64,000 nucleotides of DNA, from NCBI RefSeq assembly GCF_054482525.1, contig NZ_CM137006.1. The stretch is one strand, 5' to 3'. The notes beneath the pieces were generated by a model. That model searched no databases and was not told the DNA's origin. It saw only the letters and a list, made by a program, of their open reading frames with translations. Below are positions 3,506 through 54,710 of this stretch, piece after piece. Made by a program: the position numbers and the translations under genes. Position 1 is the first letter of the stretch, and each line of letters begins with the position of its first letter.

Positions 3506-3547
3506 TTAGATTTGACTGAAATCGTACAGTAAAAAGCGTACAATAAA

Positions 3548-3573: not shown

Positions 3574-3696
3574 AGCACGAGAGCCTTTTTTGTCAGCTAT
3601 CTATACTTTAAGGTGACTGCCAAAACAGACTCGACGTAGCCTTCGAGCTGCGCACCAACACGGCCTCAGATGGGCCACATCTGGAGAAACACCGCA

Positions 3697-33985: not shown

Positions 33986-36508
33986 TTATGCCGGGAGCTC
34001 CGGGGGGAATGCTTCTTCCAGTCGGTTAACCATATTGCCGAGATGGGATGCATCATATTCCATGACGGGGCGTTGCCTGATGATACTGACCACCAGTGGT
34101 TTGATTAACATATTGGTCGCGGCCCGTTGTTGTATACCGGCGGCGAAAATGATCTCCAGAGCATTCTGATCGATAACACGGGCCAGATTCTCGTTCAGAT
34201 TTTCAATCTCATGTCCGGTCAGCAGGAAACTGCCGGCAAGCCATGTCACCTGCTCCTGAATCATTGCCAGAATTTTGACGCGATCTTCTTCAACCAGCGC
34301 TCCGGCAATTTTTCCTGATACAGCGGAGGCAATCATTCCCCCCAGAACACCGCCAACCACACGTCCTGTCAGTGCACCAAATGGTCCCAGTGGACTGAAC
34401 AATATCCCGCCCGCCACTGACCCGACAGCACCACCTGCCACACCGGAAGATGCCACGGCAAGATTCCTGATGAACTGCGCACCGGAGATCCGTCCCCGCA
34501 ACATTTTGATCATGTCAGGGCCGGTTGTGACAGCTACCAGTGCCAGAGATGTTACCAGCGTACCCTTCATTACTTTGTTCAGGGCACTGATATTTCCTGC
34601 ACCGGTCCCCTTCTGAAGAGCCAGTCGGACAGTCGGGCTGGCAGTCGAAAAATCAATGTGCTTCAGCATACCCTGAACAACACTGAGCCGGTGGAGTTGC
34701 TGGGTTGTGACGTAGACAGCCAGTGTGCGGGTGAAGGTTTTTCCTGCCTGGACAGCAGCTGTCTGCAGGGCAGCATCGCGATCGCCGGTGCTGAGCCAGA
34801 AGACCGATGCCGTCAGGGCAAAACTGATCCCTCCGGCCGCCAGACTGACAACCGAACCCTCGGCAATATCATAAGTGACCGATTCGATGGTCCCGAACCG
34901 GGTGATATTACGGGCCTGAGTATAAGTCAGATGTCCCCGACGAATCAGCCGGGACGCTTCTGCGGGATCGGTTACACCGGGTACTTTACCTTCGCGGATC
35001 TTATTCCTCATGGTTTCAACAGCGCCGGCATACTGATCACGGGGGACTTCCAGTTGCATGGGGCCATTATTTCCCATGTAACGATACTGTCCGTTTTGTC
35101 CGTCGAATGCCGCACCGACGCTACGGGCTGCAGTTGAACAATATTTCGTCTGGATTTCTGTTCCGCTGACCAGTCTGTCTGCTCCATTTCTGGCATTATT
35201 ATCACCGAGGATCCGTGCGTTTTTCAGACGGACTCTGTCGACAATATGGTTTCCCCGTTCAGCGGCAAACCCATGTCCCTGCCCTCCGGAAGCAAACATT
35301 TTCTCATTTGTACTCCAGGTTTCCGGCAGTTTCATGAGAATCAGACCATTCGCCGTTGCATCGGAAATAAAGCTGTTGTAAGGGCGTTCATAAATTTCCT
35401 GACACAGTGTTTCTGTTTCGCGACAAAGAGAGGTGCAGTACCATTCCGGATCCAGCTTATGATTTTCCGGGGCATGATGTACTTCTGTCAGCCCGCAGGA
35501 GGCACAGATACGAAGCTCATCCACGTGATGGAATGATACAAAACGGCGACCTTCTGAAAAGGGATACCAGTCACCGCCGTCCAGGCAACGATCGAGAAAA
35601 TCGTCATTCGCTTCCGGTGATAAATTCAGGCGGTTCCGGAAGAGCGTTTTCAGTTCATCAGGTGTGAATGACAGGTTCTCTTTCAACTGTTCGTTAAACC
35701 CTGCCATGTTTCTTTCATACCAGGCATTGTTCAGTAACCAGTTTCCGTCTGCCAGTTCAAATTCCCTCAGCTCTCCCCGGGAAATCCGTTGAGAAATGAG
35801 CGTCAGCCAGATGCGCTCCGTCAGTGAGTCAGGAAGGCTGTAATCGTTTTGCAAACTGGTCAGCCACGATTTACTGTTGAGCACCGGTTGTTCTTCCAGT
35901 GTCTGGCTGATGGCACAGGTCAGTTTTTTCAGCGCCTGGATCTGGCTGGCCGCCCATAGCAGCGTCACTAATGCAGCCAGCCAGTACAACAACCCGCCCC
36001 ACCACATCAGTGACGGTGAAATATCGTACTGTAACGCGATCAATGGTGCGCATGCAGAACACGCCATAAGGAAAAAGGCAGTATAAAAACAGCAGTAATA
36101 CCCGTTAATTTCCTTGCTGATATCTTCTGGTGTGATCCCGTTCTGCTGAATGTTTTTGATCTGCAGGGGAACAGCCAGCAGACCACCGGCGAGAGCGGTG
36201 GTCAGAATAAATTTCACAGAGTCAAAGGTGTGAGCCTCCAGCGCGATATGTTTACCATCAAGTCCCCACATGAAGCTGATGATCATTCCGGCAATCGTCA
36301 GAAATACGCCTGCCAGCCAGCGAATATGGAACAACCGGGTTATGCGTTCGGTGATATAGCCAGCCAGTAAGGCCGGGCCGAACAGACACAGCAATATGAG
36401 CCCTGCCAGCGCAGAAGCCGTGCTGATTAATGCTCTGAACAAAAGGCGAAGAATGGCAAATCCTGCGATCAGCAGGATCAGCGCGCCGACTATCTGTAAC
36501 ATAGTCAC
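33986..36508 (-). CDS. yeeR: YeeR-like inner-membrane protein (840 aa)
   Basis: Multiple TM segments at N- and C-terminal parts; located between the antirestriction/DUF932 genes and flu as yeeR is in CP4-44. Confidence 0.6.
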   Translation of the reverse strand: MTMLQIVGALILLIAGFAILRLLFRALISTASALAGLILLCLFGPALLAGYITERITRLFHIRWLAGVFLTIAGMIISFMWGLDGKHIALEAHTFDSVKFILTTALAGGLLAVPLQIKNIQQNGITPEDISKEINGYYCCFYTAFFLMACSACAPLIALQYDISPSLMWWGGLLYWLAALVTLLWAASQIQALKKLTCAISQTLEEQPVLNSKSWLTSLQNDYSLPDSLTERIWLTLISQRISRGELREFELADGNWLLNNAWYERNMAGFNEQLKENLSFTPDELKTLFRNRLNLSPEANDDFLDRCLDGGDWYPFSEGRRFVSFHHVDELRICASCGLTEVHHAPENHKLDPEWYCTSLCRETETLCQEIYERPYNSFISDATANGLILMKLPETWSTNEKMFASGGQGHGFAAERGNHIVDRVRLKNARILGDNNARNGADRLVSGTEIQTKYCSTAARSVGAAFDGQNGQYRYMGNNGPMQLEVPRDQYAGAVETMRNKIREGKVPGVTDPAEASRLIRRGHLTYTQARNITRFGTIESVTYDIAEGSVVSLAAGGISFALTASVFWLSTGDRDAALQTAAVQAGKTFTRTLAVYVTTQQLHRLSVVQGMLKHIDFSTASPTVRLALQKGTGAGNISALNKVMKGTLVTSLALVAVTTGPDMIKMLRGRISGAQFIRNLAVASSGVAGGAVGSVAGGILFSPLGPFGALTGRVVGGVLGGMIASAVSGKIAGALVEEDRVKILAMIQEQVTWLAGSFLLTGHEIENLNENLARVIDQNALEIIFAAGIQQRAATNMLIKPLVVSIIRQRPVMEYDASHLGNMVNRLEEAFPPELPA

Positions 36509-39840: not shown

Positions 39841-40713
39841 TCAGAAGAAAATCCAGTTCCATACAGCGCGGGCAACAGAGACCACCGTGTCACGGACGGC
39901 ACGCAGAACCGTACGGGCAACAGAGGCAACACAGACGCTCTCCGCCGTGTCAAATATCCGGTCCACCGCACCGGTAAACTGTTCACGGGCCTGAGCGCGG
40001 ACAGATTCCGTGCGCAGCTCGTCCTGCAGGCGGGTCATCAGGGGACTGGCGGCATGGTCGGGAAGTGCTGTCATTAGCGCACTGACCAGCGTATCCAGTT
40101 CCCAGCCGGTGCGGGCCGATACGGCAACAACCGGATGTACGGGCCGGAACAGACGGAATACCGCCTCCGTTTTCTCCCGAATGTTCTGTGCCTGTGCGGG
40201 AGAAGGCTGAATGCCGGCCATATCCCATTCATGGCAGGGCTCCGTTTTGTCGGCCTGCGTCACCACAAACAGCACCTGCTGATGTCCCCGGTGCAGGATG
40301 TGTCGCCAGAAATACTCATCCACAGACAGGGCGCGGTCATCGGCTTTAATCAGCCACAGCACCAGGTCCAGTTCGGGCAGAATGTCACGGTACAGGGCTT
40401 CATACTCTGCATCCCTGTCCCGGCTCTCGCCCACCCCGGGCAGGTCAGTGATAACCATGCTGTGACCATGGCCACTCAGACGGAAGCGCCGTACTTCCCG
40501 GGTGCCGGCGTGAACATCACTGACCGGGGTGACCTCCCCCTGAAACAGTGCATTACAGAGTGAGGATTTACCGGCCCCGCTTTTACCCATAATGCCAATC
40601 ACGGGTTCGTGACTGGTGAGTTTGCGCAGATGTTCCAGGATGTGACGGGAAAGCGAGTAAGGCAGGGAGGAGAGCGGTTTTTCAATTGCCTCAATGGCAT
40701 CAGACGGATTCAT
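39841..40713 (-). CDS. yeeP: YeeP/YfjP/YkfA-family GTPase (about 290 aa)
   Basis: P-loop GIMGKSGAGKSSLCNALF, DLPGVGES G3-like motif; start taken at MNPSD within ORF 39841-40752. Confidence 0.75.
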   Translation of the reverse strand: MNPSDAIEAIEKPLSSLPYSLSRHILEHLRKLTSHEPVIGIMGKSGAGKSSLCNALFQGEVTPVSDVHAGTREVRRFRLSGHGHSMVITDLPGVGESRDRDAEYEALYRDILPELDLVLWLIKADDRALSVDEYFWRHILHRGHQQVLFVVTQADKTEPCHEWDMAGIQPSPAQAQNIREKTEAVFRLFRPVHPVVAVSARTGWELDTLVSALMTALPDHAASPLMTRLQDELRTESVRAQAREQFTGAVDRIFDTAESVCVASVARTVLRAVRDTVVSVARAVWNWIFF

Positions 40714-41286
40714 ACATGTATTCCCGGTGAAAAAAGACAAAACCCCGCGCACCGGAAAAGTGGCGGGGGACTCACGGAGATAATATCTGCCTAAAATTAT
40801 TTGGAATGCAGGTATATGCAGCTAATTTGTATCGGCTCATTAGTACAGAACTAAACCTCATCTGACAGTCCGCTCTGTGCCAGGAGCAGACATTGCCAAC
40901 GTTATGACCCTCGATTACATCAAAGAGCCCTATAGCCGAAACCTGCACCATAGCCATCTCTGTAGAATTCGTCCTAGGGGCTTTTAACAGACCTAGTTGT
41001 ATGGAGCGGAAGGAAATATTAAAGCTCAAGGCGTCAGTCCAGTGCTGTCCTGTTTGCTTACCACACGAAAGAGTGCTGCTTGTACCTGCTAACTAATGGT
41101 ATGCGGAGTGAGGGGGGCGGGTAGAACCAAAAGCACTTACTACGTGTGGCGCTCTCCTGGAAGAGGAGACGTCGAAGTGATAACGCTAACAACAGTCTTA
41201 CTGGTGATGCAAATAATGCTAGCTGGTCTGGTTGCCATCAAGCAACTGACTGGACGCCCGTAAGGGATGGAGGAACTTGATTAAAG

Positions 41287-41378: not shown

Positions 41379-42062
41379 ATGACTGAATGGCTTAATGCAC
41401 ATTTTGGTGCAGACGCAGCTACCTATCTTAGCTTATTAGTCGGCGTACTGGCACTGTTTGGTATTGGGGGCGGTGTTACATATAGAATCAGACAGCAAAA
41501 CAACATAAAACAGAAGGCAAAGAAAACCGAGGGTGATGTGAACCAGGCCGGGCGGGATATTAATCAGACCACCAACGTTTACCACACATCCAATGAATCT
41601 ACTGAGGACCCTGTAAAAAAAAAGCAAGATGAACATGATCTGAAGATAATCGACCAGATCCTTGAATTGCTGCCTTATGAGGATACTACTCAATGGGTTG
41701 AGCAGAGCTACCTGAGCGGTATACGGCAAGATGTTTGCTTAAACATTGAAAAAGCTGAAAAATTTAGCGGTGAAAAGTATCGGTTATTCAATACTGAAGT
41801 GAATGGTGCGAAAGACGCTTTTTTGGACGCTATGACCGCATACGTAGATAGTACGCTACCATTTATGAGTGTTGATTACCCGAACAGAAAGCCAGTGATG
41901 CTAAGCCTTCCCCATGACTGGAAGAGTAAGAGTGTTGAATCGGAGGCAAACTTCCGCTTTCATCAGCAAAATGTGCGTGAAACATCGGGGGGGATGATTG
42001 CGCGCTATGAGGATTTTGTCAGGACATTTAAGGCTCATGGATTCATAAGCGATAAACTGTAA
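41379..42062 (+). CDS. Hypothetical N-terminally membrane-anchored protein (227 aa)
   Basis: ATG preceded by AAGGA and a TATAAT -10 box at 41343-41348; one predicted TM helix (YLSLLVGVLALFGIGGGV); own terminator downstream; no recognised domain. Confidence 0.6.
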   Translation: MTEWLNAHFGADAATYLSLLVGVLALFGIGGGVTYRIRQQNNIKQKAKKTEGDVNQAGRDINQTTNVYHTSNESTEDPVKKKQDEHDLKIIDQILELLPYEDTTQWVEQSYLSGIRQDVCLNIEKAEKFSGEKYRLFNTEVNGAKDAFLDAMTAYVDSTLPFMSVDYPNRKPVMLSLPHDWKSKSVESEANFRFHQQNVRETSGGMIARYEDFVRTFKAHGFISDKL

Positions 42063-42141
42063 AGGCGCAGTGGGTCAGCGAACACCGCAACGACAGAACC
42101 GCGTAAGCGGTAAAATCAGCTTGTTAACTGGCGAGTTTATA

Positions 42142-42166
42142 GCCGTCCCTCCGGGGCGGCTTTTTT
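42142..42166 (+). terminator. Rho-independent terminator after gene 41379-42062 (GCCGTCCCtccGGGGCGGC + TTTTTT)
   Basis: Hairpin followed by a T-run 80 bp after the stop codon. Confidence 0.6.
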
Positions 42167-42416
42167 ATGACTATAATCGACAGAATCACCTGAACGTCCA
42201 GGTGGGTTTCCCTGACAGGACGTCAAGGAATGTTCGCTTTGTGCCAGGAGCGGACGTTGCCAGCATTGAGTTTTCAGTTTTCAAAGGTATATCTTTAGAT
42301 TTAGTTCACTTAGAATGAGCGTGTTAAAGTTTTCGGTTATGTGAGTATATTGAACATAACAAATAAACAATAATTTTTGTATTCCATTTAAGATATAAAA
42401 AAGAGGGATTTGAGTT

Positions 42417-43202
42417 ATGTACGATTATAGTTTTTTACTTACTCCATCTACAGGATTTGTTAAAGGATTATGTGGAGTTTGGTCGAATGATTTCTCTATA
42501 AATGATGATTCTGACTCTGATTTAGGGCAAACAGATATTCATTTACTTTCATCTCCTCATTTGAATATCATATCCGACCCAAATGAATTGGCTTCCAAGT
42601 TAAAAGGTTTGTTGATGCTCATGAACGGCGCACTTAGCGTTCTTTATGGTTTTGAAAGATATCAATCTTTTGGTCCTCTTTCTATTTCTGGAAGTGAAGG
42701 CATTAATTACTCGGAAATATGCGGCTTTAAATCAATGGATGTAACTCAGGTAAATCCCTTTAATTTCCATGACATACAGCAACCACACCCTCGCGCTGAT
42801 AATTTTTCACGATTAATTAATTTATCATCTAAACATGAATCCTTACGTGTTGTTTTAGGTATGTGTGCCTTAGGTTATGATTGGGTTAATCTTTATCGTT
42901 TGTGGGAAACAATTAGAGAATATGTATATGATAAATATGTGAAAGGTATACTAAATTTTCCCGACGCTTATAAAGGCAAGAAATATCAGAGAGATAAAGT
43001 AATTAGCATGGCTTTTAATATTGATGAAAAGGAAATCAGCAGATTCACGGGCACTGCTAATAGCTTTGAACTGTTAGGGTATCTTGCGAGACATGGAAAG
43101 GGAAGTTCCGGAGGGATATTAAAAAATCCGATGTCAAGAGTTGACGCAAGCAATTTCGTACACAAAGCAACTTACAAATATTGTAAGTTATTTTTGATGT
43201 AA
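42417..43202 (+). CDS. Hypothetical protein (261 aa), strongly AT-rich gene of likely foreign origin
   Basis: Clean ORF preceded by AAGAGGGA RBS; codon usage and GC content far below the flanking DNA; no recognised domain. Confidence 0.6.
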   Translation: MYDYSFLLTPSTGFVKGLCGVWSNDFSINDDSDSDLGQTDIHLLSSPHLNIISDPNELASKLKGLLMLMNGALSVLYGFERYQSFGPLSISGSEGINYSEICGFKSMDVTQVNPFNFHDIQQPHPRADNFSRLINLSSKHESLRVVLGMCALGYDWVNLYRLWETIREYVYDKYVKGILNFPDAYKGKKYQRDKVISMAFNIDEKEISRFTGTANSFELLGYLARHGKGSSGGILKNPMSRVDASNFVHKATYKYCKLFLM

Positions 43203-43363
43203 GTAAAAAGTTGAAGCTATAATACTCAAAGTATCGAAAACTACGTTCGTCGTGCACTCGAAAACAATATGCTTATTGTGTCTGCACTAATTACTCAAGG
43301 TCCGAGAAAAATGGCGAAGCTCATCTTTTTCAGGCTTCGCCAACTTGAGTTATTGGTTAAAAT

Positions 43364-44116
43364 TCATTTAGGAATAATAGAATGCAATTCGTGACTCACC
43401 TGGATTTCATAGTGTTTCAATAGTTCTCCGATGTTAATTCCTACTACCTTACGAACTGCGCCGAGGGAGAAGTTAAGCTCCTCAATGCCCGGCCGATCTG
43501 GCGTTGAATTCATATAGTGTCGGCACGCACGGACAATTGACTCGACGATCAACGATAGCGGAGACTCAGGTGCAATCTCGGAGCGAATCGCCGTAAGAGA
43601 GAGTCGGAGCTCCTTCAAAGAATCCGAGACTCGTGCTGGATCCTCTTGAGCATATGGCAGATAAAGAGAACTCTTGTCTTCCAATAAATGGATCACCCGC
43701 AGAGCAATTTTCTCGTCTGGGCGATGCGATAGAAATTGAAACATTAGCCTCTTTCCTCCCTCCAAGCACTCCTTCATTAGTGATTCGTGGTCACGTTTCC
43801 ATTTTCGCAAATACTCGGCGGGGTAGCCCATACCGCCATTCTTATCAACTAAATCAGCACAAGCTCCGCACAACCATATAGCATTTTTTATGCTCTTCCG
43901 CTCTGTTTCTGACTGAGACATGTCATAGCGCGGTCCGCCAGGGCTCGCCGCGCAGATATGCGCCGCCTCACCCGTCTTGATAGAAAGATTTTCCGCCAAT
44001 TGATCCGGGCCGATTGTTACCCTATGACAAGAGGGATTGCTACAAATATATGTAGCGCGCTCTGCTACCTTACCTACAACGCTTGGAGGAAAGTTGTGCC
44101 TATTTGTCTTGGTCAT
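43364..44116 (-). CDS. Hypothetical protein with N-terminal HNH-nuclease-like motif (250 aa)
   Basis: CSNPSCH ... EAAHICAASPGGPRY ... NAIWLCGACADLVD resembles the Cys-pair/His/Asn arrangement of HNH endonucleases; C-terminal domain unrecognised. Confidence 0.55.
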   Translation of the reverse strand: MTKTNRHNFPPSVVGKVAERATYICSNPSCHRVTIGPDQLAENLSIKTGEAAHICAASPGGPRYDMSQSETERKSIKNAIWLCGACADLVDKNGGMGYPAEYLRKWKRDHESLMKECLEGGKRLMFQFLSHRPDEKIALRVIHLLEDKSSLYLPYAQEDPARVSDSLKELRLSLTAIRSEIAPESPLSLIVESIVRACRHYMNSTPDRPGIEELNFSLGAVRKVVGINIGELLKHYEIQVSHELHSIIPK

Positions 44117-45089
44117 AAAAGTTATGCTTCTTTGTTTTTTTCATCTATGTGGGGAGAATAAAATCATACTTTTTATATCTGATCCTAGGTCTGACCAGCA
44201 ACCTATTGATCAAAAAACCAAGATATTAGCTAAAAAAAATCAGCATACTTGAGACCAAGCTCAATGTCCGCTCCTCGCTCAAAGCAGACCATTCGCTCAG
44301 TTAACGCATCAGTGTCGTGCTAAAAGTAGACGTGGTTAACAACAATGTGAGTTAATCAACGGAGAGCAGGTCAACTCTAACCTGTATCAAAAAAACAAAT
44401 GTGTCACAAAGATGCCGCATGCCTTAATTTGAGTATAATTGAGACGGAAGTAGACGGTTTATGGCTAAATATTGTTGATATATAGCTATTTGAAGAGTTG
44501 TAGCGCAAGTGTATAGCCCAAACTAATAACGCTACGCCCCTTACCTTTGACGCCTCTTATCAAAGAGCGGCGATGATGCACAGCCCGCACGAGGCAATAT
44601 TCGCACAAGAATCAGGTTCAGAAATAACCTGATCTGGCATGGTGGGGAGAGTATCACTGAGCAGGCTTTCGGTAAAATGCGGCGGGATGAGGTCGGCGTG
44701 GGTTGCAGCAGTACAATGTCGCCCGCAGAGGGTAAGCCACAGCGCGGGATCCTCGGTTTCTATCAGGGATTCGACGAAGTGGGCGCAGTTGTCGACCAAG
44801 GCGGTGAAATCCATAGTGACATTATAAGGAAACGAACAATAGATCGAGTAAATCGCAGTCAGGGACAAGGATTGTAGTCATAGAGAAGTCTCCTGTAACG
44901 GTTTTCAGGAAGCTAATCCCGACGCCTGATTTTGCAGGCGCGGAAGGAGAAGATACTGCGGCCATTAATCCGCCACAAGGCATTTACGTGCATAAATCGC
45001 GCAGTCAAATCCGACTCCCACTGTAGTTCTTGAACCTGATACCACATTTAGCTAATTTAGCTAACTTATCTATTATACCAGTGGTTGCC

Positions 45090-45335
45090 ATGAATATGAA
45101 TGAAGACGAGATTTATCGCCATATCCGGCAGGCACTTTCCAGTGCGCCTCGTAACCAGTACACCGTCGAGCTGCACCTGCAAATGATTAAATATGCCGAC
45201 AAACTGGAACACATTACGGCAAAAGCCTTTTGCGAAGGCACTGGTCTGAACCAGAGCCTCGGTACCGAATTCAGCAAAATGCGTAACTTAACCCATCGGT
45301 TAAAGGCCGCCGGTCTGAATACCGATCTGCTGTAA
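45090..45335 (+). CDS. Small hypothetical protein immediately upstream of hsdM (about 81 aa; start uncertain)
   Basis: ORF 45030-45335 ending 40 bp before hsdM; MNMNEDEIYRHIRQALSSAPRNQYTVELHLQMIKYADKLEHITAKAF... Confidence 0.35.
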   Translation: MNMNEDEIYRHIRQALSSAPRNQYTVELHLQMIKYADKLEHITAKAFCEGTGLNQSLGTEFSKMRNLTHRLKAAGLNTDLL

Positions 45336-45374: not shown

Positions 45375-47813
45375 ATGGCTATCAAAAAAACCGAACTCTA
45401 TTCTTCCCTGTGGGCAAGCTGCGACGAACTGCGTGGCGGGATGGACGCCAGCCAGTACAAAGACTATGTACTGACCCTGCTGTTTATGAAGTACGTTTCC
45501 GATAAGTATAAAGGCGATCCTTACGGGATGATCGTGATACCCAAAGGAGCCAGCTTTGACGATATGGTTGCGCTGAAAAATGACAAAGAGATCGGCGACA
45601 AAATCAACAAAATCATCCACAAGCTGGCGGAAGAGAACGGCCTGAAGGGCGTCATCGACGAAGCCGACTTTAACGACGAAGATAAGCTCGGCAAAGGCAA
45701 GGAAATGATTGACCGCCTGAGCAAGCTTGTCGGTATCTTTGAAGGGTTAAATCTCTCCAGCAACCGGGCCGAAGGCGACGATCTGCTGGGCGATGCCTAT
45801 GAATATCTGATGCGTCACTTCGCAACCGAATCCGGTAAGAGTAAAGGGCAGTTTTACACTCCAGCGGAGGTGTCACGTATTCTGGCGAAGGTGATTGGTA
45901 TTACTCCCGATACTCCGCAAGATGCAACGGTTTATGACCCAACCTGTGGCTCTGGTTCGCTGCTGTTGAAAGTGAATGATGAAGCCCGGCGCGGACTGTC
46001 GATTTTCGGCCAGGAGATGGATAACGCTACCAGTGCGCTGGCGCGGATGAACATGATTCTGCATAACAATGCCACCGCGAAAATCTGGCAGGGCAATACG
46101 CTGAGCGATCCGCAGTGGAAAGAGGCGAACGGCAAACTGAAAGCCTTCGATTTTGCCGTGGCGAACCCGCCTTTTTCCAATAAAAACTGGACCAACGGGC
46201 TGACGCCGAAAAAAGATCCGTTTGAACGCTTCGGCTGGGGTATTCCGCCGGAAAAAAACGGCGATTATGCTTTTTTGTTGCATATCATTAAAAGCCTGAA
46301 AAGTACCGGCAAAGGCGCGGTGATCCTGCCCCACGGCGTACTGTTTCGCGGTAACGCCGAAGCGAATATCCGTGAAAATCTAATCAAGCAGGGCTATATC
46401 AAAGGCGTTATTGGTTTGCCAGCCAACCTGTTTTACGGCACCGGCATCCCGGCGTGCATCATTGTGATTGATAAAGAGCACGCCCACAGCCGCAAAGGCA
46501 TTTTTATGATCGACGCCAGCCGGGGCTTTATCAAAGATGGCAACAAGAACCGCCTGCGTAGCCGAGATATTCACCGCATTGTGGACGTGTTCAACCATCA
46601 GCGAACGGTACCTGGCTACAGCCGGATGGTGCCCTCCAGCGAGATCGCCGGAAATGATTACAACCTGAATATTCCTCGCTATATCGAGAGCGGCGAGCCG
46701 GAAGATTTACACGATCTGACCGCGCACTTACAGGGCGGTATTCCGGCACGCGATGTGGATGCTTTGCAAGATTACTGGCGGGTATTCCCTGCCCTGCGCA
46801 ACGTGCTGTTTGCTGACGACCGTCCCGGTTACTGTCGGGCGCAGGTGAACGCGCAACAGGTGAAACCGACCATTCTGGCGCATCAGGAGTTTAAGGATTT
46901 TGCCACCCGCAGCCTGCTACCGTTTAAAGCGTGGGTGAAAGAGGCAAGTCTGGAAGAGATTCGCAAAGGTGATAAACCCAAAGCGCTAATCCACGATATC
47001 AGCGAAATGCTATTGGCGCAGTACGCCAACAGTGAGTTGCTGAACAAATACAGCGTGTACCAGATCCTGATGGATTACTGGACTGATGTCATGCAAGACG
47101 ATGTGTATGCGATTATGCAGGATGGCTGGCAAGCCGCCGCGCAAATCCGCGAGCTTCAGCCGGTGAAAGGCAAAGATGGCAAAAACATCTGGAAAGAAAC
47201 GCACGATTTCGAGTTTACCAAACGGCGCTACAAGGCCGATGTGCTGCCCCGTTCGCTGGTGGAAATTCGCTGTTTCCCGGAACTGCTGGATGCGCTGAAC
47301 CGCGCGCAGGAGCGCAGTGAAGAAGCCAGTCGTCAGCTAGTGGAATTCATCGAGGAGCAGGCAGGTGAAGAGGATCTGCTGGCCGAGGCGAAGAACGATA
47401 AAGATAAGGTGACGCAAAAGCTGGTGAATGCCCGTCTAGCACAGTTAAAGAAAACCACTGCCGGCCCAGATGAGCTGGCAGTGCTGAACCGCTGCCTGGC
47501 GCTAATTAAGGCCGAAGCCAGTGCGAAAAAAGCGCTGAAAGCCGCACAAGAAGCGCTGGATCGGGCGGTGTTTAAACATTATCCCACGCTGGATGAAGCA
47601 GCGATTAAAACGCTGGTAGTGCAGGATAAGTGGCTGGCAACGTTGCAGGCAGGGATCAAGGCGGAGATTGAGCGTATTACCCAGCAACTGGCGTCGCGCG
47701 TAAAGGAGCTGGAAGAGCGTTATGCTGAACCGTTGCTAGCGCTTGAAGCCTCCGTTGAGGCGTTGAGCGAGAAAGTGGCCGAGCATTTGCGGGCGATGGG
47801 GCTGGAGTGGTGA
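45375..47813 (+). CDS. hsdM: Type I restriction-modification methyltransferase subunit HsdM, unusually long (812 aa) with a C-terminal coiled-coil-like extension
   Basis: AdoMet motif DPTCGSGSLL and catalytic NPPF (VANPPFSNKNW) in the first ~470 aa; last ~300 aa are Ala/Glu/Lys-rich helical. Confidence 0.88.
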   Translation: MAIKKTELYSSLWASCDELRGGMDASQYKDYVLTLLFMKYVSDKYKGDPYGMIVIPKGASFDDMVALKNDKEIGDKINKIIHKLAEENGLKGVIDEADFNDEDKLGKGKEMIDRLSKLVGIFEGLNLSSNRAEGDDLLGDAYEYLMRHFATESGKSKGQFYTPAEVSRILAKVIGITPDTPQDATVYDPTCGSGSLLLKVNDEARRGLSIFGQEMDNATSALARMNMILHNNATAKIWQGNTLSDPQWKEANGKLKAFDFAVANPPFSNKNWTNGLTPKKDPFERFGWGIPPEKNGDYAFLLHIIKSLKSTGKGAVILPHGVLFRGNAEANIRENLIKQGYIKGVIGLPANLFYGTGIPACIIVIDKEHAHSRKGIFMIDASRGFIKDGNKNRLRSRDIHRIVDVFNHQRTVPGYSRMVPSSEIAGNDYNLNIPRYIESGEPEDLHDLTAHLQGGIPARDVDALQDYWRVFPALRNVLFADDRPGYCRAQVNAQQVKPTILAHQEFKDFATRSLLPFKAWVKEASLEEIRKGDKPKALIHDISEMLLAQYANSELLNKYSVYQILMDYWTDVMQDDVYAIMQDGWQAAAQIRELQPVKGKDGKNIWKETHDFEFTKRRYKADVLPRSLVEIRCFPELLDALNRAQERSEEASRQLVEFIEEQAGEEDLLAEAKNDKDKVTQKLVNARLAQLKKTTAGPDELAVLNRCLALIKAEASAKKALKAAQEALDRAVFKHYPTLDEAAIKTLVVQDKWLATLQAGIKAEIERITQQLASRVKELEERYAEPLLALEASVEALSEKVAEHLRAMGLEW

Positions 47814-49147
47814 TGGTGGATTTAATGGTGAATGAGCAACGGTCGAGTACGGCGGGGAAAGATGTGCCTGCGGGGTATAAACTGACTGAGGTGGGCGTGA
47901 TTCCTGAGGATTGGGATTGCGTACCATTTGGTAATCTGTTTAAAACAAACACAAAGAAAAAAAAAGTCAGCGATTATGAGCTAGTTTCATTTATTGGGAT
48001 GCAAGATGTTAGTGAAGATGCACAATTAAAAAATAATACTCAACTTCCTTTTAAAGAAGTTAAAAGTGGTTTTACTTACTTTGAAAAAGGGGATGTTTTA
48101 TTAGCTAAAATAACCCCTTGTTTTGAAAATGGAAAAGGATGTCATACCGCTGATTTACCTACTAATGTAGGTTTTGGGAGTACGGAATTTCATGTATTAA
48201 GGGAAAATGAAGACTCCGATTCTCGCTTCATCTATTTTTGGACAACTGATAAAAAATTCAGAGCATCACTGGAATCTGAAATGGTGGGAAGTGCGGGACA
48301 CCGTCGTGTGCCGCTAGTTGCTATAGAAAAATATTTGATTCCATGTCCCCCAAATTTGCAAGAGCAAAGTGCTATTGCTGATTCATTATCTGATATTAAT
48401 AATTTTATTCTAGCTCTAGAAAAGCTTATCGTTAAAAAACAAGCCATTAAAACCGCTACTATGCAGCGACTACTGACTGGTAAAACCCGTTTGCCACAGT
48501 TTGCGTTGCGCAAAGATGGCTCTGCTAAGGGATATAAAAAGAGCGAGTTGGGGGAGATTCCTGAAGATTGGAATTGTATTAATCTTGGTGAGCTAGGTAA
48601 TTGCATTATTGGGTTAACTTACAAACCTGAAGATACATCTGATTATGGTACATTGGTATTACGCTCATCCAACATTCAAAATAATCACTTAGCTTATGAT
48701 GATAACGTCTTCGTCAGCATAGAACCACCTGAGCGCACAATTGTGAAAGAAGGTGATATCTTGGTATGTGTAAGAAATGGCAGTCGCCAACTTATTGGCA
48801 AATGCGCATTAATTGACAAAAATGCGCAGGGCTCAGCATTCGGTGCATTTATGTCAGTATTCCGAACTGATATATATGGATTTACATTTCACCAATTCCA
48901 GTCTGATATTATTCAAAAGCAAATCGCTGAAGTTATGGGTGCCACTATCAATCAGATAACTAACAAAGATATGTTGGGCTTTAAAATCCCATTACCTGAA
49001 AATACAGAAGAACAAGCCGCCATCGCCGCCATCCTCTCCGATATGGACAAGGAAATCCAGATCCTGCAACAGCGTCTGGACAAAACCCGCCAGCTTAAGC
49101 AAGGGATGATGCAGGAACTGTTAACCGGGAAAATCCGCTTAATATAG
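47813..49147 (+). CDS. hsdS: Type I restriction-modification specificity subunit HsdS (two AT-rich target-recognition domains)
   Basis: Conserved central and C-terminal repeats (…LLTGKTRLPQF… and …QELLTGKIRLI) flanking two variable AT-rich domains; ATG overlaps the hsdM stop (ATGA). Confidence 0.85.
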   Translation: MVDLMVNEQRSSTAGKDVPAGYKLTEVGVIPEDWDCVPFGNLFKTNTKKKKVSDYELVSFIGMQDVSEDAQLKNNTQLPFKEVKSGFTYFEKGDVLLAKITPCFENGKGCHTADLPTNVGFGSTEFHVLRENEDSDSRFIYFWTTDKKFRASLESEMVGSAGHRRVPLVAIEKYLIPCPPNLQEQSAIADSLSDINNFILALEKLIVKKQAIKTATMQRLLTGKTRLPQFALRKDGSAKGYKKSELGEIPEDWNCINLGELGNCIIGLTYKPEDTSDYGTLVLRSSNIQNNHLAYDDNVFVSIEPPERTIVKEGDILVCVRNGSRQLIGKCALIDKNAQGSAFGAFMSVFRTDIYGFTFHQFQSDIIQKQIAEVMGATINQITNKDMLGFKIPLPENTEEQAAIAAILSDMDKEIQILQQRLDKTRQLKQGMMQELLTGKIRLI

Positions 49148-49159
49148 AAGGGAAAGCAC

Positions 49160-49816
49160 ATGGCTTATGATTACAGCGCCAGCCTCAACCCGCAAAAAGC
49201 TCTGATCTGGCGTATCGTCCATCGGGACAATATCCCGTGGATTCTGGATAACGGGCTGCACTGCGGCAACAGTCTGGTGCAGGCGGAAAACTGGATCAAT
49301 ATCGGCAACCCGGAGCTGATCGGCAAGCGTGCCGGGCATCCGGTACCTGTCGGAACGGGCGGGACACTGCATGACTATGTGCCGTTTTATTTTACCCCCT
49401 TCTCGCCAATGCTGATGAACATCCACAGCGGGCGCGGCGGCATTAAGCAACGCCCCAATGAGGAGATCGTTATTCTGGTCAGCAACTTGCGAAACGTGGC
49501 AGCACACGACGTACCCTTCGTGTTTACCGACAGCCATGCTTACTATAACTGGACCAACTACTACACCAGTCTGGATAGTCTGGACCAGATCGACTGGCCC
49601 ATTTTGCAGGCACGGGACTTTCGCCGCGATCCAGACGATCCGGCTAAATTTGAACGCTATCAGGCAGAGGCGCTAATCTGGCAACACTGCCCGATCTCTC
49701 TGCTGGATGGGATAATTTGTTACAGCGAAGAGGTCAGGTTACAATTAGAACAATGGCTGTTTCAGCGTAATCTAACAATGTCCGTTCACACACGGGCTGG
49801 ATGGTACTTCTCATGA
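49160..49816 (+). CDS. darT: DarT-like DNA ADP-ribosyltransferase toxin (DUF4433, 218 aa)
   Basis: [38 protein letters not shown]... matches E. coli DarT as I recall it; followed by a macrodomain gene with overlapping stop/start. Confidence 0.8.
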
Positions 49817-50880
49817 TCACATATACACAAGGCAATTTACTGGACGCACCGGTGGAAGCTCTGGTGAATACGGTTAATACCGTCGGTGTCATGGGGAAAG
49901 GCATCGCGTTGATGTTTAAAGAGCGCTTCCCCGAAAATATGAAAGTCTATGCCCTCGCCTGCAAACAAAAGCAGGTGATCACCGGCAAAATGTTCATTAC
50001 CGAAACCGGGGAACTGATGGGACCGCGCTGGATTGTTAATTTTCCGACCAAACAGCACTGGCGCGCTGATTCCCGCATGGAGTGGATTGAAGATGGCTTG
50101 CAGGACTTACGCCGCTTTTTGATTGAAGAGAACGTGCAGTCCATCGCCATTCCACCACTGGGCGCAGGCAACGGTGGTTTGAACTGGCCGGACGTTCGGG
50201 CGCAGATTGAATCTGCCCTTGGCGACCTTCAGGACGTTGATATCCTGATTTACCAACCGACTGAAAAATACCAGAACGTTGCCAAAAGCACTGGCGTAAA
50301 AAAGCTCACTCCCGCCAGAGCCGCCATCGCTGAACTGGTGCGTCGCTACTGGGTATTGGGGATGGAGTGCAGCCTACTGGAAATCCAGAAACTGGCCTGG
50401 CTGTTACAACGCGCCATTGAGCAGCATCAACAGGACGATATCCTCAAACTGCGGTTTGAAGCTCACTATTATGGCCCCTATGCGCCCAATCTGAACCATC
50501 TGCTTAATGCGCTGGACGGCACCTATCTTAAAGCCGAGAAACGCATCCCGGACAGCCAACCGCTGGATGTGATCTGGTTTAACGATCAGAAAAAAGAACA
50601 CGTTAATGCGTATCTGAACAACGAAGCCAGAGAGTGGCTACCTGCGCTGGAGCAGGTCAGCCAGTTAATTGACGGCTTTGAATCGCCGTTTGGTCTGGAG
50701 TTGCTGGCAACCGTAGACTGGTTGCTGAGCCGTGGCGAATGTCAACCAACGCTGGATTCCGTTAAGGAAGGGCTGCACCAGTGGCCTGCGGGCGAACGCT
50801 GGGCCAGCCGTAAGTTGAGGCTGTTTGATAATAATAATCTGCAATTTGCCATTAACCGCGTAATGGAGTTCCATTGCTGA
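49813..50880 (+). CDS. darG: DarG-like macrodomain antitoxin (about 355 aa; alternative start at 49801)
   Basis: N-terminal macrodomain [39 protein letters not shown]; ATG overlaps the darT stop (ATGA). Confidence 0.8.
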
Positions 50881-50898
50881 GGGTTTAAGGAGCGCCTT

Positions 50899-53800
50899 TT
50901 GAGTACCGTGGGCCAGCGCGAACGCGCCACACAGCAGCGTCTGATTCAGTTTTTTGTTGAAGATTTAGGTTACCGCCATCTGAGTCACCGCACCGGGTAC
51001 ACCGGGAACAGCAACATCGACACTAATATACTGAGCGCGTGGCTAAAACGGCGCGGCGTTAATGATACGTTGATCACCCGGGCGTTGCGGCAACTGGATT
51101 CCGCCGCCGCTCTGGGCGAAGGCAAAAAACTCTATTACGCCAATAAAGAGGTCTATCGCCTGCTGCGTTACGGCGTGAAAGACAAAGAAGGCGCAGGCGA
51201 GCAGAACCAAACCGTGTGGCTGATTGACTGGGCCAACCCACAAGCCAATGATTTCGCCATCGCCGATGAGGTGACGGTCAAAGGCGAGTACTGCAAGCGC
51301 CCGGATCTGGTGCTGTACGTTAACGGCATTGCGCTGGGCGTGATTGAACTTAAGCGTTCGTCAGTGCACGTCAGCGAAGGCATCCGGCAGAATCTCGATA
51401 ATCAAAAGAAAACCTTTATCCGCGATTTCTTCACCACTATGCAGTTAGTGATGGCGGGCAACGATACGCAGGGCCTGCGCTACGGCACCATCGAAACCCC
51501 GGAAAAATACTATCTGGAGTGGAAAGAAGATAATCCAGGCGACTATACACATAAACTCGACTTTCATTTAAGTCGTCTGTGTAGCAAATCCAGGCTGTTG
51601 GATATCGTCCATAATTACATTGCCTTTGATGTCGGGGTGAAAAAACTCTGCCGCCATAATCAGTTCTTCGGCGTCGAGGCGGCTAAACAACATATTGCCC
51701 GTCGTGAAGGCGGTATTATCTGGCACACACAGGGATCGGGTAAAAGCCTGACGATGGTCTGGCTGGCGAAGTGGATCCGTGAAAATGTGCCAAACTCCCG
51801 CGTGTTGATTGTGACTGACCGCACCGAACTGGATGAACAGATCGAAAGCGTGTTTATGGGCGTGAATGAAGATATTTATCGCACCTCCAGCGGCAACGAT
51901 CTTATCGCAACGCTCAATCATCCTAACCCGTGGCTCATTTGCTCGCTGGTGCATAAATTTGGTCGTCGCAGCGAAGCTGAAGACAATGCGGCTACCGACG
52001 CCTTTATCACCGAATTACAGCAGTCCCTGACGAAAACATTCCGCGCCAAAGGCGATCTGTTTGTTTTTGTGGACGAGTGCCACCGCACACAATCCGGCAA
52101 GCTGCATAACGCCATGACTGCCATTCTGCCGGACGCCCTGTTTATCGGTTTTACCGGCACACCGCTGATGAAGAAAGATAAGAAGAAGTCGGTTGAGGTG
52201 TTCGGCCCTTATATCCATACCTATAAATTTGATGAAGCGGTGGCCGACGGTGTGGTGCTGGATCTGCGCTACGAGGCACGCGATATTGACCAGTATCTGA
52301 CATCAGAGAAAAAGGTCGATGACTGGTTTGAAGCCAAGACTCGCGGTTTGTCGAATTTAGCCAGGACCCAGCTTAAGCAAAAGTGGGGATCAATGCAGAA
52401 GCTGCTCTCCAGCAAGTCGCGGCTGGAGCAGATCGTTAACGACATTTTGCTGGATATGGATACCCGTCCACGCCTGATGGACGGGCGCGGCAACGCCATG
52501 CTGGTATGCAGCAGTATCTATCAAGCCTGCAAGGTTTACGAGATGTTCAGCCAGACCGAGCTGGCAGGAAAAGTAGCGATTGTGACCAGCTATCGCCCCG
52601 ATGCCGCCAGCATCAAAGGCGAAGAAACGGGCGAAGGGTTAACGGAGAAACTCTCTAAACACGCCACCTATCGTAAAATGTTGGCTGACTATTTTGAACA
52701 AAGTGAAGAGAAGGCCGCCGCACGCATTACCGAGTTCGAGCGGGAAATGAAACAGCGTTTTATTGAAGAGCCGGGGCAAATGCGCCTGCTTATCGTGGTG
52801 GATAAGCTGCTGACTGGCTTTGACGCGCCGTCCGCCACCTATCTCTACATTGATAAAACCATGACCGACCATACGCTGTTTCAGGCGATTTGTCGGGTGA
52901 ACCGGCTGGACGGTGAGGATAAAGAGTATGGCTATATTATCGATTATAAAGATCTGTTCCGTTCGCTGGATAAAGCGATTACCGATTACACCACGGGCGC
53001 GTTTGATGATTACGATCGGGACGATGTGGCCGGGTTGCTGAAAGACAGGCTGGAGCAGGCGCAACTGGATCTCGACAGCGCGCTGGAGATGGTTCGCAGC
53101 TTATGTGAACCCGTCAAAACCCCGCGCAGCCTGCTGGACTATCAGCACTATTTTTGCGGTGAATCAGGAGAGAATCAGACTTCGTTAAACGAAAAAGAGG
53201 CGCTGCGCCTGACATTTTACCAGTGCGTCGCCCGTCTGCTACGCGCTTATGCCAGCATCGCCAATGAAATGCCGGAAGCAGGCTACACTGCCGAAGAGGT
53301 AGAGAGCATTCGCGCCGAAGTCGCTGAATTCGAAAAACTGCGCTATGAGATTAAGCTGACCAGCGGCGATCTTCTGGATATGAAGCGCTTTGAACCCGCT
53401 ATGCGTCATTTACTGGATATGTATGTTCGCGCCGATGGTAGCGAAGTGCTGATGGATTTTGAAGAGTTAAGTCTGATTGAACTGATTGTCGAGAAAGGCT
53501 TGGCGGCGACCGTCGCCCTGCCGGATGATATCCGTAATAATCAGGATGCGATGGCGGAAACCATCGAAAACAACGTGCGCAAAACCATCGTGGATGAAAA
53601 CCCGGTTAACCCAAAATACTATGGACGCATGTCGCAGCTGCTGGATGAACTGATTACCCTTCGCCGACAAAATGCGCTCAATTATCAGCAGTATCTGGAA
53701 CGTATCCGCGATTTGTGTAAACAGGTCATCCGCCCGGAGCAAACCGCCGGAGCGTGCTACCCTGCCACCATGGATACACAAGCAAAGCGCGCCTTCTATG

Positions 53801-53994
53801 ATAACTTCGGCCACGACGAGGTACTGGCGACCCGCATAGATACGACGATTCGCTATACCAAAAGGGCAGAGTGGATTGGCGATCGTTTTAAAGAACGGGA
53901 AATTGCCAACGCATTACGTGAAGAGACCGCCAGCTATAATATTGATATTGATGAGGTGATAGCGCTTGCCCGTCAGCAGAAGGAATATCACTGA
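50899..53994 (+). CDS. hsdR: Type I restriction enzyme endonuclease/helicase subunit HsdR (1031 aa, TTG start after AAGGAG)
   Basis: Helicase motif I HTQGSGKSLTMV, motif II LFVFVDECHRTQSG; size typical of HsdR. Confidence 0.88.
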   Translation: MSTVGQRERATQQRLIQFFVEDLGYRHLSHRTGYTGNSNIDTNILSAWLKRRGVNDTLITRALRQLDSAAALGEGKKLYYANKEVYRLLRYGVKDKEGAGEQNQTVWLIDWANPQANDFAIADEVTVKGEYCKRPDLVLYVNGIALGVIELKRSSVHVSEGIRQNLDNQKKTFIRDFFTTMQLVMAGNDTQGLRYGTIETPEKYYLEWKEDNPGDYTHKLDFHLSRLCSKSRLLDIVHNYIAFDVGVKKLCRHNQFFGVEAAKQHIARREGGIIWHTQGSGKSLTMVWLAKWIRENVPNSRVLIVTDRTELDEQIESVFMGVNEDIYRTSSGNDLIATLNHPNPWLICSLVHKFGRRSEAEDNAATDAFITELQQSLTKTFRAKGDLFVFVDECHRTQSGKLHNAMTAILPDALFIGFTGTPLMKKDKKKSVEVFGPYIHTYKFDEAVADGVVLDLRYEARDIDQYLTSEKKVDDWFEAKTRGLSNLARTQLKQKWGSMQKLLSSKSRLEQIVNDILLDMDTRPRLMDGRGNAMLVCSSIYQACKVYEMFSQTELAGKVAIVTSYRPDAASIKGEETGEGLTEKLSKHATYRKMLADYFEQSEEKAAARITEFEREMKQRFIEEPGQMRLLIVVDKLLTGFDAPSATYLYIDKTMTDHTLFQAICRVNRLDGEDKEYGYIIDYKDLFRSLDKAITDYTTGAFDDYDRDDVAGLLKDRLEQAQLDLDSALEMVRSLCEPVKTPRSLLDYQHYFCGESGENQTSLNEKEALRLTFYQCVARLLRAYASIANEMPEAGYTAEEVESIRAEVAEFEKLRYEIKLTSGDLLDMKRFEPAMRHLLDMYVRADGSEVLMDFEELSLIELIVEKGLAATVALPDDIRNNQDAMAETIENNVRKTIVDENPVNPKYYGRMSQLLDELITLRRQNALNYQQYLERIRDLCKQVIRPEQTAGACYPATMDTQAKRAFYDNFGHDEVLATRIDTTIRYTKRAEWIGDRFKEREIANALREETASYNIDIDEVIALARQQKEYH

Positions 53995-54710
53995 TGCCAA
54001 TCATGCAAATAGGCTCGTTACACTTGCTGGTCAACCGTAAGGCGATTAAGAATCTGCATATCAGCGTGCTGCCGCCTGATGGCAAAGTACGCGTTTCAGC
54101 GCCGGAACATATGACGGAGACGGCGATTCGTATGGCGGTTGCTTCACGCTTTCGCTGGATCAGAAAACAGCAGCAGGATTTCGCCAGACAGCCTCGTCAA
54201 TCAGAGAGGGAAATGGTCAGCGGAGAGTGCCACTATCTTTGGGGCCGAAGATATCGCCTACTTGTGATTGAGCGTCACGGGCGTCACGAAGTAAAAGTTG
54301 CAGGAAATAATAAGCTCCAGCTTTATGTTCAACCAGGAACCCGTGATGAAAATAAGGCATTGGCGTTAAGTGAATTTTATCGACATGAACTAAAACAGCA
54401 GGTGGCTAAGCTTCTACCTGAATGGCAGGACCGAATCGGTGTTCCCCTAACATTCTGGGGCATCAAAAAGATGAAAACCTTTTGGGGCACCTGTAACACT
54501 ACAACAAAACGAATCTGGCTCAATCTGGAGCTAATTAAGAAGCCGCCGGAGTGTCTGGAGTATATTCTGGTGCATGAACTGGTTCATCTTCTGGAACGTC
54601 ACCATAATGCTCGCTTCCGGTTGCATATGGATCGGTTTATTCCTGACTGGCGTGAGCGTCGGGATTTGTTAAATAATATGCCGTTAGCGTTTGAGGCATG
54701 GGAGTATTGA
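53994..54710 (+). CDS. Zinc metallopeptidase-like protein (YgjP/DUF45/M48-like, HExxH), start overlapping the hsdR stop
   Basis: HELVHLLERHH motif; ATG at 53994 overlaps the hsdR TGA. Confidence 0.7.
   Translation: MPIMQIGSLHLLVNRKAIKNLHISVLPPDGKVRVSAPEHMTETAIRMAVASRFRWIRKQQQDFARQPRQSEREMVSGECHYLWGRRYRLLVIERHGRHEVKVAGNNKLQLYVQPGTRDENKALALSEFYRHELKQQVAKLLPEWQDRIGVPLTFWGIKKMKTFWGTCNTTTKRIWLNLELIKKPPECLEYILVHELVHLLERHHNARFRLHMDRFIPDWRERRDLLNNMPLAFEAWEY

Follow-up and report, generated by a model that had tools for sequence, protein, structure and literature searches.

A variable stretch of a CP4-44-like island in Escherichia coli carrying DS-29, an HNH–DUF6650 fusion and a putative membrane-tethered bundle protein as probably independent modules

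Genomic setting and gene content

The window analysed here, a stretch of 64,000 nucleotides from contig NZ_CM137006.1 (RefSeq assembly GCF_054482525.1), belongs to Escherichia coli, a 3.6-kb query being 100% identical to strain EC_J_9 and others. Three consecutive open reading frames in it, ORF1, ORF2 and ORF3 (Table 1), and their possible roles in phage defence are the subject of this text. Window positions 1–27000 are core genome, running from mdtH via the csg operon to ghrA. According to the RefSeq annotation of the identical locus, the adjoining island is CP4-44-like and is integrated at tRNA-Ser (serX) next to ghrA. Genes for CbtA/CbeA, YeeS, antirestriction, Ag43 and a GTPase of YeeP type come ahead of ORF1–ORF3 in it, and a type I restriction–modification (RM) operon, an M48 peptidase gene and an IS600 remnant downstream of them. 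An earlier note on this DNA had placed the three genes between the GTPase and a type I RM/DarTG operon; the ORF listing gives exactly the same three, at the same coordinates and lengths, and the flanks also agree (GTPase at 39841–40752 on the minus strand, operon from 45375). The markedly AT-rich character claimed for ORF2 is likewise real, its G+C content being 0.346 against 0.501 for the whole window, with 0.434 for ORF1 and 0.481 for ORF3.

Each gene had been credited with its own ribosome-binding site and its own terminator, which holds in both respects for ORF1. This gene has an AAGGA box and a terminator-like hairpin with a 9-bp stem, 7 GC pairs and the tail TTTTTATGAC. ORF2 has a GAGGG box and ORF3 a weak, purine-rich one, and the two share the one hairpin between them. 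Because the T-run of that hairpin lies on the minus (ORF3) strand only, it is likely the terminator of ORF3.

Table 1. Features of the three-gene interval and its boundaries (window coordinates)
Feature	Position	Strand	Description	Basis
ORF1	41379-42062	+	227 aa, ATG start, WP_000141343.1	ORF listing
ORF2	42417-43202	+	261 aa, ATG start, WP_061089765.1, DS-29 ('HEP3')	ORF listing
ORF3	43364-44116	-	250 aa, ATG start	ORF listing
HNH (His-Me finger) domain, Cap5/SPARHA type	43757-44116	-	ORF3 aa 1-120	PADLOC, PDB profile, family alignment
DUF6650 (PF20355)	43364-43756	-	ORF3 aa 121-250	homologue annotation, profile search, joint alignment
Terminator-like hairpin and T-run	42141-42161	+	79 nt 3' of the ORF1 stop	
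Hairpin between convergent ORF2 and ORF3	43313-43341	.	8-bp stem GGCGAAGC/GCTTCGCC	read from the sequence
R1, palindrome copy	40868-40891	.	GTCCGCTCTGTGCCAGGAGCAGAC; boundary between YeeP-GTPase backbone and ORF1 module	
R2, second palindrome copy	42232-42255	.	left edge of the ORF2+ORF3 cassette	
R3, third palindrome copy	44266-44289	.	degenerate (3 mismatches); right edge of the ORF2+ORF3 cassette	

DefensePredictor (PMC13092281, Science 2026; bioRxiv January 2025) gives ORF1, ORF2 and ORF3 log-odds of 5.34, 9.79 and 5.48, respectively, all above its strict cutoff of 4. These scores also fit the suggestion of the earlier note that the interval serves defence, and the defence interpretation of the region is supported. 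PADLOC matched ORF3 to HNH effectors and matched neither ORF1 nor ORF2; the helical domain in the ORF2 model has HEPN-like matches, and Foldseek on the ORF1 model gave weak matches (E 0.005–0.2) outside its own family. Since ORF2 has been validated and all three genes were already flagged in that genome-wide prediction, the region is not to be counted as a new discovery in itself.

ORF2 is the published defence system DS-29

The expectation that at least one of the three genes is anti-phage is borne out by ORF2, which is a validated single-gene system. Its translation equals the sequence of WP_061089765.1 printed in Table S8 of PMC13092281 over 261/261 residues, and the RefSeq annotation of a 100%-identical locus assigns ORF2 the same accession. 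In that study the protein, with the working id HEP3, is system DS-29, cloned as a single coding sequence (2077–2862) from ECOR contig NZ_RRWI01000012.1 (Table S6), a contig that has the same order of ORF1, ORF2 and ORF3. DS-29 is recorded as 'defensive TRUE' in Table S6 and as replicated TRUE in Table S8 (sheet system_display_names), and Table S7 gives its protection, as -log(efficiency of plating), at 5.0 for T4, 6.3 for Bas60, 3.7 for Candy and 1.26 for RB69. ORF2 and DS-29 do not differ at the protein level, and the published data are of phenotype only. They show ORF2 to be a stand-alone anti-phage protein that blocks T-even-like phages when expressed by itself. Being identical to DS-29, it can no longer be called undescribed, as the earlier note had it.

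How the protein might act is less settled. DS-29 was called HEPN by its authors on an HHpred probability of 0.59 to PF18867 (PMC13092281). The AlphaFold2 (AF2) model of ORF2 has an N-terminal alpha/beta domain and a C-terminal helical domain, the latter with the HEPN-like matches, and the protein has no significant Pfam, NCBIfam, PADLOC or PHROG match. The family alignment shows an invariant patch, F210-T211-x-T213-x-N215 followed by the adjacent R225-H226-G227. Two observations weigh against a catalytic HEPN: a pattern search of the full protein found the canonical Rx4-6H motif nowhere, and the invariant R225-H226 lies in a low-confidence loop of the model (predicted local distance difference test, pLDDT, below 50 for aa 221–232). 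From the HHpred value and the absent motif it follows that the HEPN fold is plausible and the catalytic mechanism unproven; most likely, the activity of ORF2 would reside in a helical domain of non-canonical HEPN-like type, with the FTGTxN...RHG patch at its centre.

In K. aerogenes (L004–L006), a diverged ORF2 homologue is directly preceded by a DUF2971 gene and has SIR2_2 close by. A DUF2971-related structural homologue has been validated as DS-45 in the DefensePredictor tables (PMC13092281).

ORF3 joins a Cap5-type HNH domain to DUF6650

ORF2 and ORF3 had both been regarded as unassignable. ORF2 is DS-29, and ORF3 could be assigned along its whole length, as a Cap5-type HNH domain followed by PF20355/DUF6650. 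The HNH-like Cys/His/Asn pattern noticed at its N-terminus proved to be a true HNH domain by PADLOC and PDB profiles. Residues 5–120 match the PADLOC models PDC-M68A (6.6e-24), the 'Endonuclease' effector of the cyclic-oligonucleotide-based anti-phage signalling system (CBASS; 2e-19), SAVED_HNH (2.3e-18) and the N-terminus of SduA. Against the PDB, the ORF3 family profile matches the SPARHA HNH–APAZ effector 9om4 (4.8e-14) and the Cap5-type chains 8ysq, 7rwk, 7rwm and 8fm1, the HNH matches ranging from 4.8e-14 to 3.6e-09. An alignment of 29 sequences spanning Proteobacteria, Bacteroidota and Verrucomicrobiota has C25, C30, C83, C86, H53, N78, D91 and N93 invariant, among which, as read from the alignment, the four cysteines are the putative zinc ligands and H53 the putative general base. 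H53 and N78 align with H53 of MllaSPARHA and N71 of AcaSPARHA, both essential by mutagenesis (PMC12738770). One difference weighs against a nuclease of this kind: the second metal-binding histidine (AcaSPARHA H80, in the alpha-helix) is Ala87 in ORF3. Since the corresponding residue of 8ysq, a Cap5-like chain, is Gly, Ala87 may be tolerated, and the invariant D91 and N93 may substitute for the second His.

Cap5 and SPARHA belong to the same HNH subfamily as ORF3, with the same zinc site, general-base His and Asn, and have in common with it the layout of an N-terminal HNH domain and a C-terminal regulatory domain. In both, the HNH domains become active only once the regulatory domains have brought four subunits together and a composite active site has formed (PMC12738770), and this logic of activation by oligomerisation is likely the same in ORF3. 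The regulatory domain of Cap5 or SPARHA is SAVED or APAZ, whereas that of ORF3 is DUF6650, and ORF3 has no CD-NTase (cGAS/DncV-like nucleotidyltransferase) or Argonaute partner. The comparison with CBASS gave no SAVED domain in ORF3, where the matches cover only aa 5–120, and no nucleotidyltransferase in the annotated island. PDC-M68A, although the best PADLOC match and similar in profile length (253), aligns only over its HNH part (profile 5–113 of 253) and leaves the C-terminal half of ORF3 unmatched; no PDC-M68 partner gene was detected beside ORF3, ORF1 and ORF2 having no PADLOC match of any kind.

The C-terminal 130 residues were assigned to DUF6650 through homologues. All 120 of the 120 ORF3 homologues listed have a precomputed match to PF20355, a family of 150 positions, and the orthologue in strain F41 is named 'DUF6650 family protein' by the Prokaryotic Genome Annotation Pipeline (PGAP). 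A profile of aa 121–250 alone, searched against 1.84 billion representatives, retrieved 989 proteins, mostly of 150–180 aa and consisting of this domain only; two of them were looked up and both are annotated PF20355. A joint alignment of fused and stand-alone DUF6650 proteins shows no variation at E146, E158, S166, R171, R222 and G226 and almost none at C198 and R199. Set against this assignment is an on-demand Pfam scan of ORF3 itself that finds no family, even at E<=10. We treat this blank as a limitation of that copy of the Pfam library, and the DUF6650 call therefore rests on the homologue matches, the PGAP naming and our own profile search. Copies of Pfam thus disagree on this family, which calls for caution wherever a missing Pfam match serves as an argument.

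DUF6650 occurs in several architectures. Among the best 150 of the 989 representatives, 110 have the domain alone, 26 are HNH–DUF6650 proteins, 2 have transmembrane (TM) helices and 12 have other extensions. One of these 12, P0311 (312 aa), has a bSEFIR (TIR-like) domain N-terminal to DUF6650 (PADLOC 1.2e-50); P0196 has an extra 100-aa N-terminal domain before HNH–DUF6650, and P0212 has TM helices on either side of DUF6650. Such varied fusions make DUF6650 a promiscuous module, and the occurrence of several different N-terminal modules fits a regulatory or oligomerising role for it.

Two published systems bring DUF6650 into immunity. The domain is newly implicated in defence via DS-27 ('SMEK', WP_087896215.1), a SMEK+DUF6650 gene of E. 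coli that was validated as a single gene without a TIR partner (PMC13092281). DS-27 and ORF3 are alike in being single E. coli genes whose product ends in DUF6650 after an N-terminal module, but that module is SMEK in DS-27 and HNH in ORF3. The relationship is weakened by hhalign, in which neither the ORF3 family nor its C-terminal domain gave a significant alignment to the single DS-27 sequence, so that what links ORF3 with DS-27 is solely that both are PF20355. The second system is type VI Thoeris, in which a TIR protein (ThsB) is paired with ThsG (DUF6650) and the signal is 2'cADPR, a cyclic form of ADP-ribose (bioRxiv 10.64898/2025.12.03.692087). The preprint's model of ThsG is a hexameric tube in which adjoining protomers form basic pockets, the mode of toxicity of ThsG without TM helices was left unclear by the authors, the system was reported in E. 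coli strains S1 and ACN001, and HNH–DUF6650 fusions are not mentioned. ThsG belongs to the same family, PF20355, as the C-terminal 130 aa of ORF3, and the residues invariant in stand-alone DUF6650 proteins are kept in ORF3. ThsG, however, is DUF6650 alone or with TM helices and has the TIR protein ThsB adjacent, whereas ORF3 has an N-terminal HNH domain and no adjacent TIR; ORF3 also lacks the variable insert that ThsG has between the ACR and LGxxR motifs.

Genomic context and possible gating of ORF3

A partner for ORF3 was sought in its surroundings. The annotation of the island and of window positions 1–58600 includes no TIR gene, which leaves a cADPR-type ligand, if there is one, without a source there, and neither ORF1 nor ORF2 has a ThsB/TIR match in PADLOC. 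When all ORFs within 3.5 kb of 20 full-length HNH–DUF6650 genes from different genera were clustered, no neighbour family occurred in more than 2 of the 20 loci. The genes upstream of two stand-alone DUF6650 genes were not TIR by Pfam or PADLOC, in two cases only and on short contigs. ORF2 was itself considered as the TIR protein, which would have made ORF2 and ORF3 a type VI Thoeris pair, and was rejected, as it has no TIR/ThsB match in PADLOC or Pfam, a model with HEPN-like matches and a defence phenotype of its own.

Homologues of ORF3 stand beside HEPN_AbiV/DUF4062, beside a HEPN gene and near AAA_21/RloB. Others, 53–60% identical to ORF3, are found in lambdoid prophages (E. coli prophages L010–L012 and Buttiauxella L025), where they lie between the antiterminator gene Q and the holin genes in the opposite orientation; this slot carries stx and other morons. 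Such settings are typical of stand-alone defence genes or morons.

In one Klebsiella locus, L103 (GCA_054849875.1), a 260-aa TIR_2/ThsB_TIR-like gene at 3117–3899 precedes the ORF2+ORF3 cassette by 1.1 kb, with an SRAP gene in between; L105, the same context in other respects, has no TIR. The TIR gene could be a coincidence in a defence island, or a hint of TIR–DUF6650 cross-talk.

ORF3, which appears in Table S5 of PMC13092281 and is absent from its Table S6, is probably a self-contained sensor-effector in which DUF6650 is fused to a Cap5/SPARHA-type HNH nuclease. In the model that we find most economical, an oligomerisation-gated DNase would act by abortive infection: an infection-dependent ligand or trigger would act on a DUF6650 ring and bring the HNH domains together, and the assembled HNH domains would form a composite active site, cut DNA indiscriminately and abort the infection. 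The analysis establishes the two domains, the conservation of residues of a putative DUF6650 pocket and the lack of a recurrent partner gene; gating by a ligand and nuclease activity are inferred. Candidates for the gate are 2'cADPR made by an unlinked TIR protein, some other nucleotide derived from infection, and a protein trigger.

The first of these gates would make ORF3 an orphan type VI Thoeris effector responding to 2'cADPR from a TIR encoded elsewhere, a reading we consider unlikely. DUF6650 defines ThsG, which responds specifically to 2'cADPR, and the conserved residues of stand-alone DUF6650 proteins in ORF3, the type VI Thoeris systems of E. coli S1 and ACN001, the SEFIR(TIR-like)–DUF6650 fusion and the TIR_2 gene upstream of one Klebsiella cassette all point the same way; yet the island and window are without an annotated TIR, the 20 diverse loci have no conserved neighbour, the Klebsiella TIR is missing from L105, and DS-27 works as a single gene. 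Still far less probable is a non-immune ORF3, which mobile elements would carry as a moron and which would be either an HNH endonuclease of the selfish or homing kind or a restriction-like nuclease acting alone. HNH nucleases are common among homing enzymes and the Q–holin homologues would suit such an element, but the HNH subtype is that of the immune effectors Cap5, SPARHA, Shedu N-terminal domains and PDC-M68A, and the generic phage HNH family matches ORF3 only at E 0.0088. Moreover, the C-terminal domain is a defence-implicated one rather than a DNA-recognition module, ORF3 is not inserted within another gene and has no partner methyltransferase, and its homologues often neighbour Abi/HEPN-type genes.

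ORF1 as a membrane-tethered helical-bundle protein

The single N-terminal TM helix ascribed to ORF1 was recovered as one hydrophobic 19-mer (aa 15–33, mean Kyte–Doolittle value 1.89). Because the net charge of its flanks is -2 on the N side and +4 on the C side, the protein is predicted to be oriented N-out/C-in. In the AF2 model the N-terminal helix is followed by a disordered linker (aa 27–77, Q/N/K-rich over aa ~35–77) and a confident helical bundle (aa 78–222). The linker has a GDVNQAGRDINQ-like unit at aa ~50–65 that is tandemly expanded in one metagenomic homologue (P0160), and the length of the tether between TM helix and bundle therefore appears variable.

ORF1 has 16 homologues, in E. 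coli/Shigella, Salmonella, Vibrio and Pseudoalteromonas. Neither it nor its homologues belong to a Pfam family, and ORF1 itself has no PADLOC, PHROG, NCBIfam or Pfam match. In Foldseek against AFDB50, its own family is followed by the weak matches already mentioned, which are proteins named DUF4760 and helical modules from Cap12-TIR, Mrr, HNH, Schlafen and 2TM-SLOG proteins; we take these model-based similarities as a lead and no more. As a fold, ORF1 is a generic four-helix bundle, with chemoreceptor and histidine-kinase sensor domains among its best matches of solved structure. The Vibrio alginolyticus homologue (L016) lies in an integron-like cassette array with the toxin–antitoxin genes CcdAB, HigB, YoeB and ParE, and with DUF2971.

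ORF1 could be described, from these data, as a membrane-tethered cytoplasmic helical-bundle protein that also occurs as a mobile single-gene cassette, for which a role in defence is predicted. We regard that role as possible but rather doubtful. The chances are about even that ORF1 is unrelated to phage defence and is a membrane-anchored island accessory, for example an envelope-stress or signalling adaptor, as its generic bundle with chemoreceptor and histidine-kinase sensor matches, its lack of a family in PADLOC, PHROG, NCBIfam and Pfam, and the tiny size of its own family would suggest. It also weighs against a defence role that the evidence for one consists only of the machine-learning score and of mobile, defence-rich contexts. 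An accessory function, on the other hand, has to contend with that score, above the strict cutoff; with the mobile single-gene cassette, flanked in the window by R1 and R2; with the toxin–antitoxin genes and DUF2971 around the Vibrio homologue; and with the weak Foldseek similarity to Cap12-TIR, Mrr, HNH, Schlafen and 2TM-SLOG modules.

Modularity of the interval and its palindromic boundaries

Conserved co-occurrence of the three genes as a functional trio, which the earlier note had considered, did not materialise. The region is matched in 274 of 5426 complete E. coli genomes, of which only 14 have all three genes and ~260 have ORF1 only, without the other two. Diverged homologues of ORF2 and ORF3 found apart from each other, and the palindrome copies between the modules, also count against a trio. 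An operon of the three genes was rejected on the 274 versus 14 genomes, the terminator 3' of ORF1 and the convergent orientation.

ORF2 and ORF3 are more closely associated. The 14 E. coli genomes that have either gene all have both, and in Klebsiella an ORF2 protein 90% identical to that of the window is followed by a convergent 250-aa DUF6650 gene in three unrelated contexts: the leading region of a plasmid or integrative and conjugative element (ICE) with SSB, ArdA and IS110; a smpB-adjacent island with TIR_2, SRAP and UmuDC; and a further SRAP/UmuDC setting 3' of a sulfatase gene. The DNA common to the window and Klebsiella, from 42236/42240 to 44289/44290 at 94% identity, is a two-gene cassette of 2.05 kb, so ORF2 and ORF3 move together as a recent unit of that size. 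On the other hand, ORF3 is missing from a Pantoea plasmid whose ORF2 is 92.5% identical in nucleotides. No DUF6650 gene neighbours the ORF2 homologues at 45–66% identity, which in K. aerogenes stand beside DUF2971 and SIR2_2 and otherwise lie in a prophage and a Pantoea ICE, and ORF3 homologues at 47–77% identity have no ORF2-like neighbour.

These data bear on whether ORF2 and ORF3 form one two-gene system, a HEPN-like RNase and an HNH DNase that cooperate or regulate each other. Their joint presence in the 14 genomes, the convergent geometry and 160-bp spacer kept in the three Klebsiella contexts, and the exact correspondence of the common DNA to the two genes would all be expected of such a system. 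We nevertheless hold it to be quite improbable: ORF2 cloned alone (the coding sequence 2077–2862) gives 5–6 logs of protection, the Pantoea plasmid and the diverged homologues have the genes singly, no neighbour family of ORF3 homologues exceeds 2 of 20 loci, and the genes, being convergent, belong to separate transcription units. The reading that explains the interval best, and that is probably correct, is of three independent modules, DS-29, an HNH–DUF6650 sensor-effector and a membrane-tethered bundle. The interval would accordingly consist of independent single-gene cargo modules in the variable region of the island, with palindrome copies between them.

The palindrome, GTYCGCTYTGTGCCAGGAGCRGAC, is imperfect and 24 bp long, with an 8-bp stem and an 8-nt loop. 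A pattern search found three copies in the window (R1, R2 and R3; Table 1) against 0 expected in 100 shuffles. They mark each junction in this stretch, separating the GTPase from ORF1, ORF1 from the ORF2+ORF3 pair, and that pair from the RM module, and R1 is also present in strains F41 and 144. In locus L002 the copies are at 9869, 11232 and 13308, and in locus L003 at 9869 and 11232. In strain 144, ORF1 leads straight to a different gene, and in strain F41 ORF2 and ORF3 are inserted at that point; the edges of this indel are the 24-bp palindrome, with the homology to strain 144 stopping at 42255. The homology to the Klebsiella cassette starts at 42236–42240, inside the R2 loop, and stops at 44289–44290, at the end of R3. 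Such coincidence of edges suggests a recombination or cassette-exchange site. An integron attC site was rejected, as the GTTRRRY core is absent.

Several other features lie near the three genes. An 82-aa ORF with a GTG start at 42070–42318 (plus strand), running across the ORF1 terminator and R2, has no RefSeq annotation and is very probably not a gene. In the type I RM operon (window 45375–54710), darT/darG (49160–50880) sit between hsdS and hsdR, as annotated by RefSeq in the identical strain; a small helix-turn-helix-like gene (45096–45335) lies ahead of hsdM, and an M48 metallopeptidase gene 3' of hsdR. On the other side of the GTPase, at 33986–36502 (minus strand), an 838-aa 'hypothetical protein', WP_063108327.1, without functional annotation in RefSeq, is encoded; its gene has the Ag43 autotransporter gene on one side and a frameshifted gene of the IrmA family on the other.

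Implications

With DS-29 published, the remaining novelty of the locus lies in two things: the HNH–DUF6650 fusion, in which immune modules known separately are combined, and the arrangement of cassettes bounded by palindromes. A wider reading joins the two. ORF3 would stand for a widespread class of HNH nucleases that are gated by DUF6650 and, as orphans, have no TIR of their own; they would sense 2'cADPR or a related ADP-ribose-derived signal, and the palindromes would be sites of an undescribed mechanism of cassette exchange for defence genes of CP4-type islands. The signal would come from unlinked TIR systems or from the infection itself, and Cap5-like HNH tetramers or hexamers would assemble in response. 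This reading is speculative and we think it unlikely to hold.

If it were true, DUF6650 would be the part of ThsG that senses rather than the part that is toxic. HNH–DUF6650 proteins are abundant, occurring in several phyla and in prophage moron slots, and they join an oligomerisation-activated nuclease to a domain whose action the type VI Thoeris study left open, so that a nuclease read-out would make ligand sensing by DUF6650 easy to assay. The palindrome-bounded cassettes, with the same 2-kb unit in four contexts across E. coli and Klebsiella, offer a handle on how the cargo of such islands is exchanged.

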